Made by a program: the position numbers and the translations under genes. A stretch of DNA of 64,000 nt from an uncultured archaeon (GTDB taxonomy: Archaea; Asgardarchaeota; Lokiarchaeia; Sigyniarchaeales; SOKP01), in the NCBI GenBank assembly GCA_964388035.1, contig CAYLZE010000012.1:13567-77566 (forward strand), read 5' to 3'. This document shows, one piece after another, positions 3,029-38,933 of this stretch; within the stretch, counting starts at the first letter, position 1, and every line of letters starts with the position of its first letter. A model generated the notes under the pieces. The model did not search any database and was not told the origin of the DNA. It worked only from the letters and a program-made list of their open reading frames with translations.

Positions 3029-4711
3029 TTGAAAATTAAGGAAAAAAAGGTTCTAGAATTGGCGAAAACTGCCTGGGGCTTAGCATTAAAGGAGTTTTAT
3101 TATCCTCCCTTAAATGAACCGCGATATGTCTTTGATTACACCCGAAAAGAGGGATTTTTTATTGATCCCGATAATCAATGGCAAATTACCATGAATCTAG
3201 CAAACATCCCCCTTTTGAAAGATGATTCGGAACTGATACAATATTTTTATGCTATCCTCCTTCATGAAATTTCCCATTATCAAGTAATTCCCTATGATGG
3301 ATTAATTAATGCGAAATTATTACATGCTGCCATGAGCCATGCCAATTCAAATTTCGCTCCATTAATTGTCAATGTTTTCGCTGATTTAGTGATTGATACG
3401 ACGTTGTATAGGAATAATCCCGATCTAATGCTCTGGGAATTTAACAAGACTCGTGAAAATTTGATCCAACATTATGGAAATCGCTTGTGCAATTTCTCTA
3501 ATTTCTTATTTAGTACGTATGAAAAATTATGGAATGTCGAGCTTGACTCTACCCACTATGCTCCCGAAATAGAATCTTTAGCTGATAAAGTTAAAGATGT
3601 TGTCCTTGATAAATTTGAAGATGAAACTTTATGGGAAACAAAAGTATCCAAAATATCGTATTATCTATCCAAGTTTTTAAATACGGAATTTACTTTTACG
3701 ACGGGAGGATATCGTCCAGTTAAAGGAAAATCAAGGAGAAAAGTTCCTGGAAAAAATATTGAAATGGAAATCCCCGATGATGTGTTGGAATTGATGGATG
3801 ACCCCCTAGAAACTAAAAATTCAGATAGATTAAAGCAAGATAATGATGATGAATTGAGACAAAAAGCAGAAGATTTTGCTAAGGATGTCCCTTTCTCTGA
3901 ATTTGGAGCTCCCGCGGGACAAGCAGGAATTCTAATTGATGGTACTCCTTTAGCAACATGGTATCGCGGGAAGGCAAAAAATTTACTAGAAATTCGGATT
4001 TTTGAGAAAAAACCTTCAGGGGAGCTTCCCATCTTTCCAGAAAAATGGAGAATCGGCGATCCCTTGGAAGAACTAGATGTTGTCCTCACACTACTCAACT
4101 CACCGGTCATAATTCCCAATATTACTACTCGTAAATGGAATTGCGAGAAAGGGCCGGGCCATTTATGCGAACAAGAACTCCCAGACTTATTAATCGTATT
4201 AGATTCCTCGGGCTCCATGCAATGGAACTTCAAAACTAAAACTGAGAAGGAAGGTGGTCCTTATCATATTGCTCTTATGGCTTCATTTGCAATTTTACAT
4301 TATGTTGCAACAAAAGGAGTTAAATTCAGCGTAATAAATTTTTCAAATTTTGCAGATACTTGTGATTGGACTATGAATTTTCATGCCGCAGAAACAGTAT
4401 TACTAAGATATCAAGGTGGGGGAACCCAGATCCCAATTAAAGCCATTCAAAACCAAATAAGAAAAGCGGAAAGAGAAGTCCTTGTATTCATCATCACAGA
4501 TTTTGGTATCCATAATTGGGCAAATACAAAAAAATTAATGCTGCAAATGGTAAACCAAGGGCATAAAATAGTAGGATTTTTCATTGGATCTAAATCAATA
4601 CCAAAAAATAAGTTTAAGGACTTAATGAATAAGGTTACCTTTTATCCCATTGAGAATATTAAGGATTTGATACATCTTGTTATTCAAGAAATTAAATATC
4701 AATATTCTTGA
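3029..4711 (+). CDS. VWA-domain protein with N-terminal HExxH metallopeptidase-like domain
   Basis: LLHEISH near the N-terminus; MIDAS DSSGSM, GGGT and IITD near the C-terminus; TTG start. Confidence 0.85.
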   Translation: MKIKEKKVLELAKTAWGLALKEFYYPPLNEPRYVFDYTRKEGFFIDPDNQWQITMNLANIPLLKDDSELIQYFYAILLHEISHYQVIPYDGLINAKLLHAAMSHANSNFAPLIVNVFADLVIDTTLYRNNPDLMLWEFNKTRENLIQHYGNRLCNFSNFLFSTYEKLWNVELDSTHYAPEIESLADKVKDVVLDKFEDETLWETKVSKISYYLSKFLNTEFTFTTGGYRPVKGKSRRKVPGKNIEMEIPDDVLELMDDPLETKNSDRLKQDNDDELRQKAEDFAKDVPFSEFGAPAGQAGILIDGTPLATWYRGKAKNLLEIRIFEKKPSGELPIFPEKWRIGDPLEELDVVLTLLNSPVIIPNITTRKWNCEKGPGHLCEQELPDLLIVLDSSGSMQWNFKTKTEKEGGPYHIALMASFAILHYVATKGVKFSVINFSNFADTCDWTMNFHAAETVLLRYQGGGTQIPIKAIQNQIRKAEREVLVFIITDFGIHNWANTKKLMLQMVNQGHKIVGFFIGSKSIPKNKFKDLMNKVTFYPIENIKDLIHLVIQEIKYQYS

Positions 4712-4802
4712 TATGAACCAGTTTGATGATATTGTAAAAGATAAATAATTATATTTCCTTAATTATAGTTAAATAAATTCATAATTTAAATGAGGAAAGA
4801 AA

Positions 4803-5570
4803 ATGAGCAAATGGACGGAATTGGATACAAAACTTAATAGCTATTTAAGATTGGCAACCTTTCCCGTAGCAATTAAATTATTACAATCAAAAGAGGAGAT
4901 TTCTGAAATCGATCATTTGAAAACTCCTGATCGGCCTCTTGCTTTATGTCAAATATTTAGTTATTCAAGATATTATGGTTGGACCATGAGTTGCTCAAAA
5001 GAAGAAAATATTTGTCCCTTGGCGAGTATTACGCTTGGATTTGAAGAACCCTATGCGCTTTTCCAAGAAGGTGCTTTTTTCGTGGGAAGATATAATAGAA
5101 CGAAAGAGGCCGCAAAAAAGACTACGGCATCCATGCCTCTGCTTCCCATGAATGAGTTTAAAGCTGTTGTATCTGGTGCTCTTTATCGCGTGAACTTTAT
5201 TCCCGATTTGATAATGCTGTGGGGAAACTCTGCTCAAATAATGCGTATCATCCAGGCCGACTTATGGGAACGAGGGGGAAGGTTTAAATTGAGTACTTTT
5301 TGCGATGGTGTATGTGCGGACACGATATCTCAAGCAATCTTAAAAAAAGAACTTCAAGTTGCATTCCCATGTCTTGGCGATCGTCGATTCGGTTTAGCAA
5401 AAGATAGTGATCTTATTGCTTCAATTCCTTTCGAGAAATTAGATTCCATTCTCGAGGGTTTAGAAAAAACGCATGCCGCAGGTACTAGATATCCCATTCC
5501 TTATCAATTATGTACCCCAGAATACTTTTTAACGTTAGAAAAACAATTAAAAAAAGTTCGAAAATCATAA
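4803..5570 (+). CDS. DUF169-family protein
   Basis: PVAIK, ALCQ, CPLA, CADT, PCLGDR conserved Cys pattern. Confidence 0.8.
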   Translation: MSKWTELDTKLNSYLRLATFPVAIKLLQSKEEISEIDHLKTPDRPLALCQIFSYSRYYGWTMSCSKEENICPLASITLGFEEPYALFQEGAFFVGRYNRTKEAAKKTTASMPLLPMNEFKAVVSGALYRVNFIPDLIMLWGNSAQIMRIIQADLWERGGRFKLSTFCDGVCADTISQAILKKELQVAFPCLGDRRFGLAKDSDLIASIPFEKLDSILEGLEKTHAAGTRYPIPYQLCTPEYFLTLEKQLKKVRKS

Positions 5571-5626
5571 TAATAAAAAAGCAAAAAAAAACTTACAAAA
5601 TACTTACTTAAAATTGGTTATTAAAT

Positions 5627-6352
5627 TTAAAGCATTTTTACTGTACCGCTCCCCTCATCAATTTGGACGATTCCCTTCACGCCTAACTGCTTAATTGTAC
5701 GTGTTGCAAGGATGGGGGGAATATCCAACAGCTTTTTCAGATCATCGAGTTTTGCCGTCTTTTTATCCATTATAGTGGCTAAGATATCAACTTCATGAAT
5801 TTCTTCATCGCTATGATCGATTAAAAAGGAACTAAAAAAATTCGCTCCTTTTAGTTTTGTCAATTGGGTATTTAATTCTTCCATTTTTTTAGCATAAGAT
5901 GAATTTATAGTCTGTTCCTTGTTTTCATTTTCAATCTTCTTTTGATCCAAGGTAGTTTTCTCACTTTCTTTGGTTGTAATGCTTTCATTGATCGCACTTA
6001 ATTTTGAAATCAGATTTTCTAGTTCTAATTGAGGATTTTTTAAATCATTATTCGCTGTTTCTAAATTCGTGTTTAACTCATTTATTTTCGAATTGAGTGT
6101 ATTTTGCTTTTCATTTAAACCTTCGATTGTTTTATCAAGCTCTTCACTTTTTGTTCTTAACTCAGTTAACTCAGATGCCTGTTCCGACAAATTCTTTTGC
6201 AGATCATCGTCTTCTTTGGTAGCTTCTTGCATTTTTTTCCAAGTTAGACTAATGTTTTGGTAGATATCATCATTGTTTTTCTGCAATTTTTGAAGGTACG
6301 TATCAAATGCTGTTTCAAATTGCTCGATGTGATTTAATATTTCCTTTACCAT
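5627..6352 (-). CDS. Long coiled-coil protein with C-terminal winged-helix domain
   Basis: About 165 aa heptad-rich region, then DILATIMDKKTAKLDDLKKLLDIPPILATRTIKQLGVKGIVQID-GTV (wHTH pattern). Confidence 0.7.
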   Translation of the reverse strand: MVKEILNHIEQFETAFDTYLQKLQKNNDDIYQNISLTWKKMQEATKEDDDLQKNLSEQASELTELRTKSEELDKTIEGLNEKQNTLNSKINELNTNLETANNDLKNPQLELENLISKLSAINESITTKESEKTTLDQKKIENENKEQTINSSYAKKMEELNTQLTKLKGANFFSSFLIDHSDEEIHEVDILATIMDKKTAKLDDLKKLLDIPPILATRTIKQLGVKGIVQIDEGSGTVKML

Positions 6353-31636: not shown

Positions 31637-33841
31637 TTATAATATTTTCTTCAGCTCTAAAATAAGAGAGCTGGGATTGTATCTATCAAATTGATAAATA
31701 TCTGCATTATATTTTTTGAAATTCTTTTTAATTTGTTCGGCAGAATATGGATGAACTCCTAAGGCGCGGGTGGCTTGAGACTTCTTAGGTTCAAGTACCA
31801 CCGTATAAATCTTTTGCTGCGCTATTTTTTTGGCAAGATCTTTTAATTCTTCAATAATTAGAATGTAATCGGATTCTACTTGTGCCACGAGGTCTGGATA
31901 TTTTACAGAAATATTTGCTCCCATATCACTACAAATGAAAATTACGGGAATGATATTTCTATTCTTAAGCTTCTCAATTTTAATAAGTCTTAAACATTCA
32001 TTTAACCCTGCCGCCATGGGAGTATAGGACCTTCCTTCAATATTCTTCAACTTTCTTAAAGCATTCTTGAAAGAAACTGTGGGTTTCTGTAAAACGATGG
32101 AGTCTTTCCCCCGAAATACAATTAATGAAATTTTATCCCGCTTTCTGTATCCTTCTTTCTGAAGAGAAAGAATTACATCCGTCATTTGTTTTATAACGTA
32201 ATACATCGAAGCGGAACTATCGAGTACAAAAAAGAGTGCTAAAGGGGCTCGATATTCAAAGATCTTATCCATGAGATCTTTTTCATCAAATCTCAGTGGA
32301 AATTGGATTTCCGATTGATTATAAATCTTATTCTTTAAATGACTACGTATGGTGGCGTCCAATGCCAACCTTTTGGGCTGATGATTTAATGGTCTTCTAT
32401 AGGTCACGTACCTTCCTTTTTGAGATGATACCATTTTTATGCGTCGTCCTATTCCCCGTCCTCCATAGTTGGAAATTTTACGATCTTTTCGAATATTATC
32501 TAAAATGGAGGTCATCTTTTTTTCCATGCTATATATTAAGGGCATGGCATCCATTTTGTTCTCATAAAATTTAAAGGTCTCCTTTTCGGTTGGGACCTTC
32601 TTTACTTTCCATCCTCCAGCAGGAGTCGCATTCCTTTTCTTCTCATCAGGATATTTGGGAGAAGGTAATTTTTGTTCTTTCGTCTCAGGAATATCTACTT
32701 TCTCAGGATCAACGGGTTGTCGTTGAAATTCCTTTTGAGGCTCATCAGTATGCTTTAATGGTCCTTCTGTCTCTCTATTTGGCTGATAAACTTTCAAATC
32801 TTCTATTGCTTCTTGAATTTTCCCATAAACTTCCGCTATTTTAGCTTCAATCTCTTCGGGGGTCATCTCATAATGCAAGGACTTTATTCTATGTTCAAAA
32901 ACTAAATCCATTGCGATGTTCATGTCCTCTTGATTAATAATCCTTCTTCCGTTAAAGGCAGCATGAGCACGAGCACAGCGCACATAGGTAATGTCAGCCC
33001 TTTGAGAAAAGATATCCAATTCATTAACTATCTTTGAAATCAGTTCATAAACAGCATTCGGAATTTCTACATCTTTTATGATTTCTCGTGCTTTACTAAT
33101 TTTATTTCGCAATTCTTCTTGATCTTTTTCGTACTTCTTTATAAATTCCCTGGGATTATCATGAAACTCGATTACTCTACGTGTTATTTCTGCTCTTAGT
33201 TTGGGGTCTCGCGGAGACACAATCTTGACTTCCAGTCCCAATCTATCTGCTATTTGGGGCCTTAATTCTCCTTCTTCAGGATTCATGCTTCCCACCAATA
33301 CGAATCGAGAGGGATGCATGACAGAAATCCCCTCTCTTTCTATGATATTAACTCCAGAAGCTGCTGAGTCTAAGAGCGTATCCACGATATGATCTTGGAG
33401 CAAGTTAATTTCATCTATATAGAGTATTCCACGATTTGCTTTAGCCAATAATCCTGGATGCAATTCCGATACTCCTTTTGAAAGAACTTTTTCAATAGAA
33501 AGAGAACCACAAACCATATCTTCCGTTACTCCAAGAGGTAGATTGATAAGTTCCATCTCCCTTGACTCTAATGCTAATTGTCCGTTTTCCTCCTTTTTCT
33601 TACACTCATCGCATAATTCCTCTAAATTCGAATTAGGATCGCATGAAAAAGGACAATCTTGAACAACTTCAATTTGAGGCATAATATCCACCAAGGATCT
33701 CACTGCTGTAGATTTACCCGTGCCTTGATGCCCACTTAGAAGTACCCCCCCGATCTGAGGATCAAGCACATTCAAAATTAAGGCCATTTTTAACCTATCT
33801 TGTCCCAATATCGCAGAAAAGGGGAAATTTATTTTTTTCAT
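31637..33841 (-). CDS. Chelatase ChlI/ChlD-like AAA+ ATPase fused to VWA domain
   Basis: FPFSAILGQ, GHQGTGKS, PGLLAKANRGILYIDEINLL, MNPEEGELRPQ; MIDAS DSSASM. Confidence 0.9.
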   Translation of the reverse strand: MKKINFPFSAILGQDRLKMALILNVLDPQIGGVLLSGHQGTGKSTAVRSLVDIMPQIEVVQDCPFSCDPNSNLEELCDECKKKEENGQLALESREMELINLPLGVTEDMVCGSLSIEKVLSKGVSELHPGLLAKANRGILYIDEINLLQDHIVDTLLDSAASGVNIIEREGISVMHPSRFVLVGSMNPEEGELRPQIADRLGLEVKIVSPRDPKLRAEITRRVIEFHDNPREFIKKYEKDQEELRNKISKAREIIKDVEIPNAVYELISKIVNELDIFSQRADITYVRCARAHAAFNGRRIINQEDMNIAMDLVFEHRIKSLHYEMTPEEIEAKIAEVYGKIQEAIEDLKVYQPNRETEGPLKHTDEPQKEFQRQPVDPEKVDIPETKEQKLPSPKYPDEKKRNATPAGGWKVKKVPTEKETFKFYENKMDAMPLIYSMEKKMTSILDNIRKDRKISNYGGRGIGRRIKMVSSQKGRYVTYRRPLNHQPKRLALDATIRSHLKNKIYNQSEIQFPLRFDEKDLMDKIFEYRAPLALFFVLDSSASMYYVIKQMTDVILSLQKEGYRKRDKISLIVFRGKDSIVLQKPTVSFKNALRKLKNIEGRSYTPMAAGLNECLRLIKIEKLKNRNIIPVIFICSDMGANISVKYPDLVAQVESDYILIIEELKDLAKKIAQQKIYTVVLEPKKSQATRALGVHPYSAEQIKKNFKKYNADIYQFDRYNPSSLILELKKIL

Positions 33842-34092: not shown

Positions 34093-35055
34093 TTAAAATA
34101 ATTTTGAAATTTCAGTAATTTTTAGTTCTAATCCTGAAACGGTCTCATCCCATTGGTGCAAGACTTCCTCGAGTTGAGGAATTACGCTCTCTCTTTCTTT
34201 ATACTCCAAATAACTCATGAAAGATTTTATATGATCAATTTGAATAAAAGTCTCCGCTACATATTTGTTGATATCTTTTTTTTGGTTTTCTAAAACCTCT
34301 GTTACTCTGGTGGATTCACCTTTTCTCACGAGAGTTTTCAAGTACTCTTCTGTCCCAAGGAGCATCGAATCCAACTTATTTATCCTCTCATTCACATAAT
34401 TTCGATAAAAATCAATGATGTTATCGCGAGGGAAAAAATTTGTCACGTCGATGATTAACCGCTGTGCTTCAAGGATCATTTTTTCTGGACTTTCAAAACC
34501 TTCAATTTTATATTCGATTTCGTGAAAATTACTTTTTTCATTATTTGCATCTTCTAAACGAAAGATTTTAAATCCCGGATCCTTCTCCAATTTTTTAACA
34601 GGATCTCCCTTTCTGTTTGGTAATTCTTCTTGTTTTAATAAGCGCTCATGATTAAATACCAATGAAATTGCTAAAGGATTTATGCTCTGATAAGATAATG
34701 TAGTTTTTCTATCTCCAAATCCTGAGAGCATGACCTTGAATCCGGGATGGCTATGCCACCAACCTATCACAAATTCATCCCTGGAATAGGCTTCATCTTC
34801 AATCATTGTCGTAGAAATATAATCCTCGTCCGACCACACGTATCTATCAACAACCGCATTTGGATCATATGTTTCATGCATGATAGGATATGCTTCACTA
34901 ACGATTACATCTTCCTTTTTTTTCTTTCCCACATTCTTACCAATAAAGATACCGTTTGCCTCTAACCATTGCTCCTTGGGAATCTTCTTATTTGCAAAGC
35001 GAACACATGCTGCAACAATTGTAAAATATACCGATTTAGGAATAATAACTGTCAT
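34093..35055 (-). CDS. MPN/JAB domain + helical/coiled-coil tail protein (variant JAMM motif)
   Basis: EANG, GWWHSHPGFKVMLSGFGD. Start moved to the ATG at 35055 (MTVIIP) because it aligns with the paralogue N-termini. Confidence 0.85.
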   Translation of the reverse strand: MTVIIPKSVYFTIVAACVRFANKKIPKEQWLEANGIFIGKNVGKKKKEDVIVSEAYPIMHETYDPNAVVDRYVWSDEDYISTTMIEDEAYSRDEFVIGWWHSHPGFKVMLSGFGDRKTTLSYQSINPLAISLVFNHERLLKQEELPNRKGDPVKKLEKDPGFKIFRLEDANNEKSNFHEIEYKIEGFESPEKMILEAQRLIIDVTNFFPRDNIIDFYRNYVNERINKLDSMLLGTEEYLKTLVRKGESTRVTEVLENQKKDINKYVAETFIQIDHIKSFMSYLEYKERESVIPQLEEVLHQWDETVSGLELKITEISKLF

Positions 35056-35238
35056 GATTTTTTTATAAAAATATTCATTTTCTCTAAACTTAATATAATT
35101 GATTGTCTTTTTATTTTTTTTCAAATGAATAAGAGAAAAGCCAAAAATTATTTATAGATTAATTTCTATCTAATTAGTAATATTTAGTTCATATTTGTTC
35201 TATCATCGATTAAGAAAAGAGTGAATAAATTGGTTGAG

Positions 35239-35919
35239 ATGGGATTTGCACCGCTGAGTACAGCTTTAGGTATAGCGGGAACATCATATTTAGTACAATT
35301 AGGATTAATTAATGAGAAATGGGCAGCACGGGTTTTAAAAGGTCGAGATGTTATCGATTCATATGTATTTAAAGATGAAGACATTGATGCTGACCGACCA
35401 AACTCAAACATTATTGTTGGTTGGATATTGCGTACCATAACACTTCCAAATATCAATCCTTACGGTGTAATGAAAACGGTTCAAGCTTTATTAAAACAAG
35501 CAGTCGATAAAAAAGATAAGCATCGCATGTCCGCTCCAATATCTGAAACCCAACATGTTAAGTTAGAGCAAGTTCCACAAAATGAGTTAAAGAGACCTGC
35601 AGTTCAAGGGACGGTGGTAGATGATTCTAAAAGCGAGCAGGATAAACGTGACGCTTTTAAGCAGAAAGTTTTATTTTCTCGAGAACAGGAACCACCATTT
35701 GCCTCGACTACCACGTCAACCACGACTACCTCCCGCAAGCTCCCTTCTATACCGTCGGCTTCTTCCTCAGATAACGAATCTATCCCTTTCGCTACCCAAA
35801 CTGGTGCCGCAGAATCATCTAAACAAGGTGAAAAAGGATCAAAATTCTGTCCTTACTGTGGGGGTAATCTAAATTGGCACTATTGTCCTTATTGCGGCAA
35901 GAAATTGCCACACGAGTAA
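35239..35919 (+). CDS. Hypothetical protein: globular N-domain, S/T-rich linker, C-terminal double CxxC zinc ribbon
   Basis: FCPYCG...YCPYCG at the C-terminus; ATG at 35239 preferred over GTG at 35221. Confidence 0.8.
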   Translation: MGFAPLSTALGIAGTSYLVQLGLINEKWAARVLKGRDVIDSYVFKDEDIDADRPNSNIIVGWILRTITLPNINPYGVMKTVQALLKQAVDKKDKHRMSAPISETQHVKLEQVPQNELKRPAVQGTVVDDSKSEQDKRDAFKQKVLFSREQEPPFASTTTSTTTTSRKLPSIPSASSSDNESIPFATQTGAAESSKQGEKGSKFCPYCGGNLNWHYCPYCGKKLPHE

Positions 35920-36054
35920 TTTTAAGTTAACTTTTCCTTCTCTCTTTTTTGGATTTTTAAATAAAAATTTTATAAATTAAAGATTTATATCGAATTCTTT
36001 ATATATATGATAGATACTGATCTGGATAAATTAGAATTAAGATAATGAAGCGGG

Positions 36055-37593
36055 TTGGATTTGCGAGATAAATCGTTAGTGATTATAAAACCGAAAGCAT
36101 TTTATAAAATGCTAGTTCACGTGCTTAGATTTGGTAATAAAGTGAGGGATAAAAACCAATATGAAGAGGGCTCCGTTGAGGTGATGGGCATGTTAATCGG
36201 GAGGTTGGAAGGTGATGAGGAGCCAAAAAACGTGATCGTGGATGATGCTATCCCCATATCACACGGAGGTTCAATTGAGGTCTCCTTTACAATTGAAGAT
36301 TATGCCACTTTTACAGATATTGAATATAAAATAACCCAAAAATATCCTGATTTATTTAATGTGGGATGGTATCATAGTCATCCTAATCTTGGTCTCTTCT
36401 TCTCGGGAACAGATATTAAAAATCAAATGGGATTTCGTTTTCCAAGTTCAATTGGAATTGTTTTTGACCATAGCTTGTTCATGACAAGTGAAGAAGAGTT
36501 AGGATTCAAAACTTTTAGGCTGAATGATTTTTCAAAAGTGACACCATCCAATTATCATGAAGTGAAAACAATAATTGAACCGCCCGATTCTCTTGATTTT
36601 TATGTCAACTTGATTAATCTCTTTAATGCTATTCATTTAAAACAGCTTCCTATTTTAGAAGCAAGCGAAACACCTGATTTAATTGGAGAAATTAGTATTC
36701 CTAATCAAGACCAATTGAAATCGAAAAAACCCATAATCCATTCAGAAGAGCTTCTTGAGCAAGTGAAAAAGGGAATAAACGGATTCATGGAGACTTCCTT
36801 GAAACCTATTTTTGAATTTTTAAATGAGTGGAGTCAAAAGATCCTGGTAGAAATTATCAAGAATAATATCGTCATGAGAGAGAATTTAGGCGAAATCATC
36901 GAGATAATAAAAATGGGATTTTCTAATTTATATAAATCAATAAAAACTATAACTTCAGATCATCTGAGTCAGCTATTCACGATATTTGATTATCAAAGTG
37001 ATTTAATTCAAGAACATCAAGTTGATTCGCAGAAAGAAATGGAAGAATTAAGAACTGAAATAATGGAGACAGTTAATTCCTTCGTACAAAATAACCTCAT
37101 GAATCCCTTTAATGAGAAGTTAGAAAATATTGGAGTCAATTTAGAACAAATGGGAAAAATGAATACAAATTTGAGAGATATGGATAAAAATATTGAATCT
37201 TTCCAAAATGAATTAAAGGGCTTAAGTGGGAAATTCTCTTTATTTAATTCTACATTCAATAAATCTATTGATGATAATAAAACCTCATATCAAGAAATAA
37301 GAGAGAATAATTTAAAAATATTAGAAGAAAAATTTGATAAAGTTGATGAACACATTGATATCCTTGAAGATTATTTGGTAAATATATCTAAAGAGATAAA
37401 AAATGCTATTCAAAAGATAAAAACTAAAATTCACGATTATAAACAAGAAAAATCTTCTTTGGAAGAAAAAATGAAAGCTTTAACAGGGGAAAGGAATGCA
37501 CTTGATAAGGATCTCAAAAAAACAAAAGAGATGATAAATGAATTAAATTCACGATTAGAAAGGGCTGATATTAAAGGAGGTAGTAAAGACTAA
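36055..37593 (+). CDS. MPN+ (JAMM) metalloprotease domain + long coiled coil
   Basis: EVMG; GWYHSHPNLGLFFSGTD is the canonical H-x-H-x7-S-x2-D; about 280-aa helical tail. Confidence 0.9.
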   Translation: MDLRDKSLVIIKPKAFYKMLVHVLRFGNKVRDKNQYEEGSVEVMGMLIGRLEGDEEPKNVIVDDAIPISHGGSIEVSFTIEDYATFTDIEYKITQKYPDLFNVGWYHSHPNLGLFFSGTDIKNQMGFRFPSSIGIVFDHSLFMTSEEELGFKTFRLNDFSKVTPSNYHEVKTIIEPPDSLDFYVNLINLFNAIHLKQLPILEASETPDLIGEISIPNQDQLKSKKPIIHSEELLEQVKKGINGFMETSLKPIFEFLNEWSQKILVEIIKNNIVMRENLGEIIEIIKMGFSNLYKSIKTITSDHLSQLFTIFDYQSDLIQEHQVDSQKEMEELRTEIMETVNSFVQNNLMNPFNEKLENIGVNLEQMGKMNTNLRDMDKNIESFQNELKGLSGKFSLFNSTFNKSIDDNKTSYQEIRENNLKILEEKFDKVDEHIDILEDYLVNISKEIKNAIQKIKTKIHDYKQEKSSLEEKMKALTGERNALDKDLKKTKEMINELNSRLERADIKGGSKD

Positions 37594-38933
37594 TGCAAGA
37601 AGCCAAAATCTTAATTTCTAAAAATGCATTCCATAAAATGTTATCTCACGCATCAAGACATGGAAGTCCTGCCTTAAAAGAGAGATTTAATGTAGTGGGG
37701 GCATGCATTGGAAAAAAAGACCCTAAAACTAAAGATCTAATTGTATCAGAGATCGTACCATTGATTCATGGAGAGCTCATTAATAAATCCCGTCCTAATA
37801 TAAACACCAATCAGCTAGAAAATGTAAAAGCCCAATATATTAAAGAAAATCTTTCTATTATTGGTTGGTATCATTCGATCCTAGAAGGAGAATTGAAATT
37901 TCAAGGAATAAATAAAGATATTCATGTATTATTTCAAAATGAAGAAAAGCCTTCGGGATTCTGCGTGCTCTTTAACCCTTTTCAATCAGAAAGCTCAGTT
38001 CCATTTAGAATTAAGGCATTTCGATTAAATGACATAAAAGACCCCGATATGAACCAATTCCTGGAAATAGAAGTAAAGATAGAACCTCCTAATAGTTTAG
38101 AATATTTTAAATGGATAAAAGATATAATGGAACTTAGAGAAAGTAAAAGTCTAACCTTTATTGAAGAATTTTCTGGGGTTGAATCAATTTCTAAAAGTGA
38201 GTTACAACAAATACCTCAATCTTCTCTCCAAGAAACTCAAGAGAAATGGGAACAAACTGGTCCCATTTTTTCTAAGATTGAAGACGGATTTTCAATTTTT
38301 TTAACTTCTCTAAAACAATCTTTTGAAAAAGAATTTGACGACTGGTTGTCAAATTTAAATGAGGGGGCAACCAAAGGGGGTCGTTCTTTAATGGAAGCAA
38401 CCAATCAAATGAAAGAACAGATTTCTTCAGGAATAGAAAGAATTGAAAAATGGGGCTCTTCTCAAATTAAGGAAAATTTCAAGGAATATGAAGAGGAATT
38501 TGAAGTGATAAGGGAAAAAGAAAATAATTCAATTGAACAAGCAAAAATGCATTTATCAACTTGGAAAAAATCATCTGTAAATGATGTAGAAAAAATTATC
38601 ACTTCGAACTCTTCCCCTCTATTAGAACGTCTTACCAACATGGAAATAAAAAGTCAAGGTACCCAACAAGAACTCTCTTCAACATCTGAGGAATTATTTA
38701 ATAAATTAAATCAGATAAAAGAGAAAATAATGTCGACGAAAAATGAAATAGAAGCAACTCTCCCAAAAATGATAAAGAATGTTGAGGGAGATCTAGAAAG
38801 AGGGCGCCAAGAAATTAATGCTGTTTATGATAAAATAACAAATAAGTATGGGGATCTTGAAAAAAAACTTTCCATTATTGAATCATCCCTTAAATCTCTA
38901 CAAGAATTGATTTCCGAAATCGGAAAATTATAG
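37593..38933 (+). CDS. MPN- (catalytically degenerate) domain + long coiled coil
   Basis: NVVG in place of EVMG; GWYHSILEGELKFQGIN lacks the second His, Ser and Asp; IEPPNSLEY matches paralogue IEPPDSLDF; TAATG overlap. Confidence 0.85.
   Translation: MQEAKILISKNAFHKMLSHASRHGSPALKERFNVVGACIGKKDPKTKDLIVSEIVPLIHGELINKSRPNINTNQLENVKAQYIKENLSIIGWYHSILEGELKFQGINKDIHVLFQNEEKPSGFCVLFNPFQSESSVPFRIKAFRLNDIKDPDMNQFLEIEVKIEPPNSLEYFKWIKDIMELRESKSLTFIEEFSGVESISKSELQQIPQSSLQETQEKWEQTGPIFSKIEDGFSIFLTSLKQSFEKEFDDWLSNLNEGATKGGRSLMEATNQMKEQISSGIERIEKWGSSQIKENFKEYEEEFEVIREKENNSIEQAKMHLSTWKKSSVNDVEKIITSNSSPLLERLTNMEIKSQGTQQELSSTSEELFNKLNQIKEKIMSTKNEIEATLPKMIKNVEGDLERGRQEINAVYDKITNKYGDLEKKLSIIESSLKSLQELISEIGKL

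Follow-up and report, generated by a model that had tools for sequence, protein, structure and literature searches.

Does a locus that carries three genes for MPN-domain proteins and a gene for a small zinc-ribbon protein encode a single multisubunit complex, or is the conserved unit smaller, and what would be the role of the zinc-ribbon protein? The locus belongs to an uncultured Asgard archaeon and lies in a 64,000-nucleotide stretch of contig CAYLZE010000012.1 (assembly GCA_964388035.1), which is the entire piece of DNA analyzed here and is called the window below. The open reading frames and their translations define four genes, denoted A, B, C and D, at 34093-38933. Comparison with related genomes shows that it is the divergent A-B pair that persists, with B adjoining A in two families and C-D in one. 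With moderate confidence, A can be predicted to function as an active JAMM/MPN+ zinc isopeptidase that has B as a dedicated adaptor-type partner, both the activity and the A-B contact being predictions. The genes and the spacers between them are as follows:

34093-35055, minus strand: gene A, 320 amino acids from the ATG codon, JAMM/MPN+ protein
35221-35919, plus strand: gene B, 226-232 amino acids depending on the start codon, with N-domain, linker and zinc ribbon
36055-37593, plus strand: gene C, MPN+ protein of 512 amino acids (open reading frame, Pfam JAB above the cut-off)
37593-38933, plus strand: gene D, MPN- protein of 446 amino acids (open reading frame, Pfam JAB above the cut-off)
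35056-35220: divergent A-B intergenic region, AT-rich, with a TATA-like block near each gene
35920-36054: B-C spacer, T-runs followed by TATA-like boxes

The main evidence comes from gene order. Among the 161 genomes of the class, 149 contain the B domain and 141 contain A, with A called at E ≤ 1e-30; adjacency in the window's own family was tabulated from coordinates. Of the 121 own-family genomes with both genes, 111 have them side by side in divergent orientation. The remainder consists of genus g9 (A and B 10.6-19 kb apart in three genomes and on separate contigs in two), a single further genome in which the two are on separate contigs, and four cases that are ambiguous or at a contig edge. 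Among 80 species-level loci gathered independently with the A profile, B lies divergently upstream of A in 72 (median gap 246 bp). In a second family, whose A proteins are about 40% identical to that of the window, the pair is adjacent in 8 of the 10 resolvable genomes and is present in single-contig genomes as well; the orientation is head-to-head in genera g17, g20 and g21, and in g23 both genes are on the same strand. Three of the four adjacent second-family loci that were fetched have only A and B in common with the 64-kb window, and the fourth also holds two genes that are located about 30 kb off in the window. Given that the flanks differ in the second family, the A-B pair appears to be kept by selection rather than by inheritance of gene order, which is the strongest argument for a functional connection. 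Thus, as the original prediction anticipated in proposing a check of neighborhood conservation, the genes are linked in related genomes.

Gene A has other neighbors. A gene for a ChlI/ChlD-type AAA+-VWA protein, annotated as "putative cobaltochelatase", lies downstream of A in the window (31637-33841, minus strand), adjoins A in relatives (e.g., L018:16765-18003 and L137:332-2536) and stays beside A even in g9, where A is split from B-C-D. In g14, a gene divergent from A (L014:7356-7976, plus strand) encodes a 206-amino-acid protein that, by eye, resembles the TATA-binding protein, with two repeats. In a fifth family (locus L020, with genes at 502-1398 on the plus strand and 4184-5113 and 5468-5992 on the minus strand), an A-like gene whose JAMM motif is canonical is located downstream of a gene for a small protein that matches Pfam PCI (24.3 bits, cut-off 22) and 3 kb from another A-like gene, in which a JAMM motif was not detected. 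This PCI lead was dropped: the PCI matches in the window's own genome lie elsewhere, and the PCI model also matches in control genomes.

The boundaries of the genes in the window are well defined. Orthologues of A begin at the same MTVIIPK sequence. For B, the candidate starts are GTG at 35221, TTG at 35230 and ATG at 35239, with the orthologues favoring TTG, so that the start codons of A and B are 165-183 bp apart depending on the choice, in agreement with the head-to-head arrangement at about 180 bp that was originally described; the stop codon of B precedes the start of C by 135 bp, which places B, also as described, directly upstream of the MPN pair C-D. The TATA-like blocks of the A-B spacer are kept in an alignment of nine own-family relatives and might act as promoters, and the composition of the B-C spacer suggests that C-D are transcribed separately from B. 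NCBIfam offers no name for any of the four proteins.

The gene A product matches Pfam JAB with 28.3 bits (cut-off 22.5), and the open reading frame, the Pfam match and the structural model agree on an MPN domain followed by a helical tail at 34093-35055, the architecture that had been proposed from the sequence. In the AlphaFold model (predicted local distance difference test, pLDDT, 91.4; predicted template modeling score, pTM, 0.88), the MPN domain spans residues 1-187 and is followed by a compact helical bundle, residues 190-319, with helices at 190-207, 213-244, 248-282, 285-307 and 309-319 (pLDDT above 90). As modeled, the MPN fold of A is certain. VIA comparisons identify similarity of the MPN domain to the Caldiarchaeum Rpn11 homologue (6fnn_A, Z 18.2, root-mean-square deviation 1.9 Å over 142 residues), yeast Rpn11 (Z 18.0), CSN5 (Z 17.5), and EMC8/9 and BRCC36 (Z 15-16.5). 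The top Foldseek match is BRCC36, with an E-value of 3e-10, and Rpn11 and CSN5 follow within about one order of magnitude; with E-values this close, no specific eukaryotic kinship of A is shown. Alignments of A reveal invariant GTEEYL, YLEYKE and W302 in the tail, which sets it apart from C and D, whose coiled coils are long and poorly conserved, and a strongly conserved insert, LPxKKGDPxKQLKNDPGF, before the last strands. The initially claimed alignment between the N-termini of A and C is confirmed, and A is 29% identical to C and 24% identical to D. The features of A that bear on its activity and architecture are:

34711-34755, minus strand: JAMM motif H101-S-H103-PGFKVML-S111-GFG-D115, i.e., HxH-x7-S-x3-D
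34960-34962, minus strand: putative catalytic glutamate E32, invariant in two A alignments
34096-34488, minus strand: C-terminal helical domain, residues 190-319, with the conserved motifs GTEEYL..TL.RKGE and YLEYKE..W

The JAMM motif indeed contains one extra residue, as the original prediction noted, and reads HSH-x7-S-GFG-D: in place of the canonical Ser-x2-Asp spacing, the window A has S111-GFG-D115. Judging from these residues, A belongs to an MPN+ family but carries a variant motif. The A family comprises 433 clusters at E ≤ 1e-10, and among the 120 listed clusters nearest to the window A (56-83% identity), HxH and Asp are kept in all, a pattern search detects the glutamate upstream of the motif in 116, and the spacing is S-x2-D (S-HI-D) in 76 and S/T-G[FL]G-D in 44. 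In an alignment of 26 sequences from five families, the glutamate, HxH (E32, H101, H103) and the aspartate are invariant and the serine is kept as Ser/Thr; the full-length A orthologues fetched from the four other families of the class (f2-f5) all have S-x2-D (e.g., SQDD). In a FastTree phylogeny of the A family rooted with the orthologues from other families, 43 of the 44 sequences with the longer spacing belong to one clade (SH-like support 95), which requires two changes at most and allows a single origin. Thus, on the evidence of the alignments and the tree, S-x3-D is a derived one-residue insertion between two glycines that is stably inherited, the ancestral state being canonical, and the simplest interpretation is that the active site of A tolerates the extra residue. 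In the neighboring pair, the C motif, HSH-x7-S-GT-D, is intact, and D, with HSI...Q..N and Asn in place of the glutamate, is dead. The earlier view of A as the middle term of a series of graded catalytic states (intact, variant, dead) is not supported, given that A keeps every catalytic residue and that its spacing is specific to one clade of an otherwise canonical family. The coexistence of S-x2-D and S-x3-D in this family provides a natural experiment in the spacing of the JAMM motif.

In genus g11, 12 of the 52 genomes with an A match have an interrupted A gene. In five g11 loci, an insert of 30-32 nucleotides splits HSHPGF|KVMMS precisely at the junction of the F106 and K107 codons:

L028:2389-2419: insert in A
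L027:2398-2427: insert in A
L034:2398-2428: insert in A
within L031:877-940 and L036:889-953 (minus): insert in A

RNAalifold analysis of the five sequences predicts a helix, a 3-nucleotide bulge, a 4-bp helix, a second 3-nucleotide bulge and another helix; each of the two splice sites that the protein alignment implies follows the second nucleotide of its bulge, and compensatory changes are seen in the intron hairpin. Because of the helix-bulge-helix-bulge-helix fold with splice sites within the bulges, the insert can be read as a canonical substrate of the archaeal splicing endonuclease; by these criteria, a protein-coding gene here contains an intron of the bulge-helix-bulge type. The A gene of the window contains no such insert.

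Gene B has 397 relatives at E ≤ 0.001; those listed with a named source are all labeled as Asgard metagenome-assembled genomes (MAGs) or marine sediment metagenome, and the nearest relatives of both A and B are labeled as Promethearchaeota or Lokiarchaeota MAGs. The alignment of these proteins comprises five conserved parts, namely a highly conserved N-domain (residues 1-100), KVPxxELKRPxxxGWV, an RxAF helix, (S/T)RxLPSIP and a ribbon, FCPxCG-x6-xCPYCGKxLPH, which map to the window as follows:

35221-35529, plus strand: N-domain, residues 1-103, with a beta-meander and then two helices
35560-35619, plus strand: linker motif KxExVPxxELKRPxxxG(W/T)V, with invariant L115, P119, R125 and G130
35635-35688, plus strand: linker helix, residues 139-156, with invariant R143, A145 and F146 (pLDDT 90 at 141-150)
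35731-35754, plus strand: linker motif (S/T)RxLPSIP, with invariant R172, L174, P175, I177 and P178
35845-35913, plus strand: C4 zinc ribbon FCPYCG-x6-YCPYCGKKLPH, CxxC-x8-CxxC, with invariant C210, C213, C222 and C225

The N-domain is modeled with pLDDT of about 97 for residues 11-100, and the linker is largely disordered in the model except for the helix at 139-156. The first linker motif is found also in second-family orthologues (e.g., KVPDNVQIKRPQASGWVKED), and LPxIP-like motifs are present in the B proteins of the second and fourth families. The N-domain sequence matches no Pfam or NCBIfam family and has no usable match in the ESM Atlas, and a PDB search with the B family profile returns only chance-level zinc-ribbon matches. 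Among solved structures, the best Foldseek match of the N-domain in PDB has an E-value of 0.086 and the best VIA match, with Z 6.9, is a de novo design, none of these exceeding the chance range. The PH-like fold consists of a seven-stranded sandwich with a C-terminal helix as its cap, and PH-like chains (EVH1, FERM-F3, PHear, RanBD) reach Z 3.8-4.8 in VIA comparisons with the N-domain, within the chance range. A UBA-like reading of "VEMGF" in B was discarded: the methionine is not conserved (the consensus is EKGF) and the model is beta-rich.

The C-terminal end of B was initially described as "CPYCG x2" behind an STTTSTTT linker; both CPYCG elements and the linker run (STTTSTTTTS) are present, and the two CxxC knuckles form one C4 ribbon, not two fingers. 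The NZF finger has the pattern W-x-C-x2-C-x3-N-x6-C-x2-C, with ten residues between the knuckles, and a ubiquitin-binding T-F...hydrophobic motif, and UBZ fingers have a C2H2 or C2HC ligand set. The B finger does not fit an NZF (x8 rather than x10 between the knuckles, with G-G/K-N/D-L after the first knuckle; at E ≤ 0.1, zf-RanBP, PF00641, has no match in B) and does not fit a UBZ (all four cysteines are invariant, and the finger contains no conserved histidine). By its two CxxC knuckles at the extreme C-terminus, B resembles the generic short zinc ribbons (PF13240, PF13248, PF12773), but the window protein scores below the curated cut-offs (21.6 bits against 25 for PF13240 and 20.2 bits against 27 for PF13248) and these families are uninformative on function; Pfam zinc-ribbon families are precomputed on many B orthologues. 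In g14, g20, g21 and g23 of the second family and g19 of the fourth, a heptad-like coiled coil without cysteines replaces the ribbon, and these forms keep the N-domain and both linker motifs. The spacing, the C4 ligands, the lack of a zf-RanBP match and the coiled-coil swap together leave ubiquitin binding by the ribbon unsupported here; the exchangeable C-terminal module looks more like an oligomerization or docking element. Thus, of the original notion of B as an adaptor with a ubiquitin-binding finger, the adaptor-like layout survives, and the NZF/UBZ-like finger does not, its spacing and ligands being a misfit.

The N-domain occurs beyond the A-B locus. A HMMER scan of 1.84 billion representative proteins with the N-domain only identifies 114 clusters at E ≤ 0.001, some of which carry tandem copies. 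In three proteins (P0252, P0260 and P0325), the domain is located C-terminal to a Ras-family GTPase; a fourth, independent fusion, in genome G152 of the own family (L136:4787-7324, plus strand, at least 846 amino acids), combines the N-domain, a winged helix and a Ras GTPase in this order, with the N-domain at the N-terminal side. Divergent from the latter gene is that for a 356-amino-acid protein (L136:3417-4484, minus strand) with CDC48_N and CDC48_2 and no ATPase match, whose tail weakly resembles the end of B (BLASTP E-value 7e-5). In a phylum-wide sample, numerous further Asgard families have the N-domain, carried by proteins of about 100 or 290-390 amino acids; it was not found in several families (e.g., 0 of 26 and 0 of 16 genomes searched). 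The proteins of 290-390 amino acids that it heads in other Asgard classes (L038:6803-7804, L045:6267-7415, L044:6433-7305, L040:7297-8172 and L043:7033-8064) end in a conserved cysteine domain of about 140 residues (PCxxC ... GC) with no Pfam match at E 10; a V4R/TRAPPC3-like reading of this domain was abandoned for lack of Pfam support even at that threshold. A word-indexed search, which is weak evidence on this point, found no longer fused forms of B.

Taken together, the N-domain and linker motifs kept across families, the swapped C-terminal module and the GTPase fusions are features of an adaptor. Under the hypothesis favored here, A would be a catalytically competent zinc isopeptidase, and B a three-part adaptor consisting of the N-domain, a disordered linker with short motifs and an exchangeable C-terminus (ribbon or coiled coil). 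Both would be expressed, and possibly co-regulated, from the shared divergent promoter region, and B would most likely direct A to its substrates or regulate its action on them, presumably in contact with it. The linker motifs are candidate docking sites, and the N-domain, found elsewhere in association with Ras-like GTPases, could be a protein-interaction module. In the own family, where C-D are placed downstream of B, B may serve these proteins too. Complex prediction for A and B gave a score of 0.00 in both runs, which speaks neither for nor against binding.

Several observations weigh against this hypothesis. In g14 of the second family, 38-44 kb separate the two genes, and in g9 they are either 10-19 kb apart or split between contigs, so that the linkage is not obligatory, and common descent of gene order inflates the adjacency counts within a family. 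In other Asgard classes, no A-like gene was found within 6 kb of the genes for N-domain proteins. With respect to catalysis, the confidence of the A model falls to pLDDT 82 at residues 111-120, and the shift of the aspartate by one residue relative to the serine could impair activity.

The principal alternative, which combines A, B, C and D in a four-subunit complex with intact, variant and dead MPN subunits and B as a zinc-finger ubiquitin receptor, accounts for the order A<>B>C>D that is kept in most own-family genera, for the MPN gene that follows B in 62 of the 72 species-level loci with divergent B, for the position of B next to both A and C-D, and for the features that A, C and D share beyond the JAMM core (e.g., GFKxFRL). 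The phyletic distributions of the two pairs part, however, and do not suggest a single obligate complex. Genera g14, g20 and g21 have A-B, and their nine genomes, three of them single-contig, yield no match to the C query at E ≤ 1e-20, and a Pfam JAB scan of the closed g14 and g21 genomes reveals no tandem pair of frames of 450-520 amino acids. Conversely, in the second and third families, C-D are encoded elsewhere with no B-type gene beside them and, in g17, g23 and the third family, without linkage to A; in g9, an insertion of 10-19 kb parts A from B-C-D, which remain together. A thus does not co-occur with C-D in the manner of a third subunit, either in g14, g20 and g21 or in g17, g23 and the third family. 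Furthermore, the B-C spacer contains T-runs and then TATA-like boxes, A is not intermediate in decay, and the ribbon misfits NZF and UBZ and is dispensable. With A-B persisting without C-D, and C-D without A-B, the single four-gene module of the original prediction is not supported, and we consider the four-subunit complex unlikely. Outside this question, the dead MPN domain of D matches Pfam UPF0172, the EMC8/EMC9 family, with 32.8 bits (cut-off 24.4), and C does so more weakly.

Two further alternatives dispense with a physical partnership. The adjacency of A and B could be devoid of functional meaning, with A a stand-alone housekeeping isopeptidase and B an unrelated protein in an inherited order: most of the counts come from one family, in which a wider synteny (chelatase ... 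A, B, C, D, a winged-helix gene and a membrane protein) is inherited, and the pair is split in g9 and g14. The survival of the pair in four second-family genera at about 40% protein identity, in three of four loci without any other gene of the window nearby and in three of four head-to-head, is hard to reconcile with this explanation, which accordingly has a small chance of being correct. Alternatively, B could regulate gene A, for example, as a small factor of transcription or translation with a zinc ribbon or coiled coil, without being a physical partner. Divergent layouts of regulator and target are common in prokaryotes, zinc ribbons are known in archaeal transcription factors, and the blocks of the A-B intergenic region are conserved. 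Nevertheless, no DNA-binding family of Pfam or NCBIfam matches B, the N-domain is approximately charge-neutral as counted from its sequence, the ribbon is exchanged for a coiled coil, A and B are unlinked in g14, and the tandem N-domains and GTPase fusions better suit a protein-interaction module; a regulatory role of this kind therefore seems highly improbable. An enzyme with a dedicated adaptor remains the reading that we prefer.

The substrates of A can be considered against the ubiquitin machinery of the genome (5.47 Mb in 211 contigs), which contains six Pfam JAB matches. A JAB-E2-ubiquitin operon is located on contig C42 (G000:C42:13154-15861), a second pair of E2-like and JAB genes on C13 (G000:C13:882-2959), and a further ubiquitin-fold match on C33. 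Contig C124 (L003:1384-2964) encodes a fourth long MPN+ protein of 526 amino acids with an intact motif (HSHPGLNLFFSYVD), which is 36% identical to A over residues 3-188 and thus as similar to A as the C-type proteins; its C-terminal region is repeat-rich and helical by eye. Since the other JAB genes lie on C42, C13 and C124, the genome has A, C and D besides the Rpn11-like enzyme of its ubiquitin operon; A represents an old family across this Asgard class, distinct from that enzyme. Given that the genome encodes ubiquitin and E2, conjugates of ubiquitin or a ubiquitin-like protein are the most plausible substrate of A. A role in defense was dismissed after a PADLOC scan for defense systems gave only weak generic JAB and coiled-coil matches. 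A search of the literature available to the analysis found no description of the A-B pair or the B domain.

Eukaryotes have their closest known relatives among the Asgard archaea, and the organization of the ubiquitin-type machinery in these archaea bears on the origin of the eukaryotic deubiquitinase complexes. In this context, the locus presents an MPN+ family with a dedicated modular partner, in a pairing that is conserved across two families of the class and is separable from the neighboring pair of active and inactive MPN proteins, C-D, and it draws attention to the B N-domain as an uncharacterized domain that recurs with Ras-like GTPases. A speculative and quite improbable extension would be that B founds an Asgard-specific adaptor family in which the N-domain is a GTPase-linked module that recruits A, and in one family also C-D, to sites of Ras-like GTPases. 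If so, GTPase signaling would be coupled to the removal of ubiquitin-type tags in archaea, as an independent counterpart of STAM-AMSH or RAP80-BRCC36.

Among the characterized systems, Rpn11, its Caldiarchaeum subterraneum homologue CsRpn11 and CSN5 (PDB 6fnn, 5w83 and 9efq; PMC6043591) share with A the MPN fold (Z 17.5-18.2, 22-24% identity) and the catalytic residues Glu, HxH, Ser and Asp, and a HMMER alignment shows that the HSHPGF wording of A is identical to that of Rpn11. As an enzyme, A groups with these proteins; it differs from them in its location outside the ubiquitin operon, the operon-linked JAB gene being on another contig, in its own conserved helical domain of 130 amino acids, in the LPxKKGDPxKQLKNDPGF insert and, in the clade of the window, in the S-x3-D spacing. 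The BRCC36-Abraxas/KIAA0157 assemblies with RAP80 (BRCA1-A, BRISC; PDB 6gvw, 5cw3 and 6h3c) combine an MPN+ enzyme that, like A, has C-terminal helices with a separately encoded non-catalytic adaptor that, comparably to B, contains a disordered region and a zinc finger; B has no detectable similarity to RAP80 in sequence or fold, so that the likeness is one of working principle, not of family. In the AMSH-STAM system, an endosomal JAMM deubiquitinase is recruited and activated by an adaptor (PMC2172215), which again joins one active MPN+ enzyme to a modular partner, as a functional analogy only: B lacks the VHS, UIM and SH3 domains, A lacks the MIT domain, and AMSH is a weaker match to the A profile (E-value about 3e-6). 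By analogy, then, AMSH-STAM and BRCC36-RAP80 would be the nearest counterparts of the A-B pair at the level of the system, with B related to neither adaptor.

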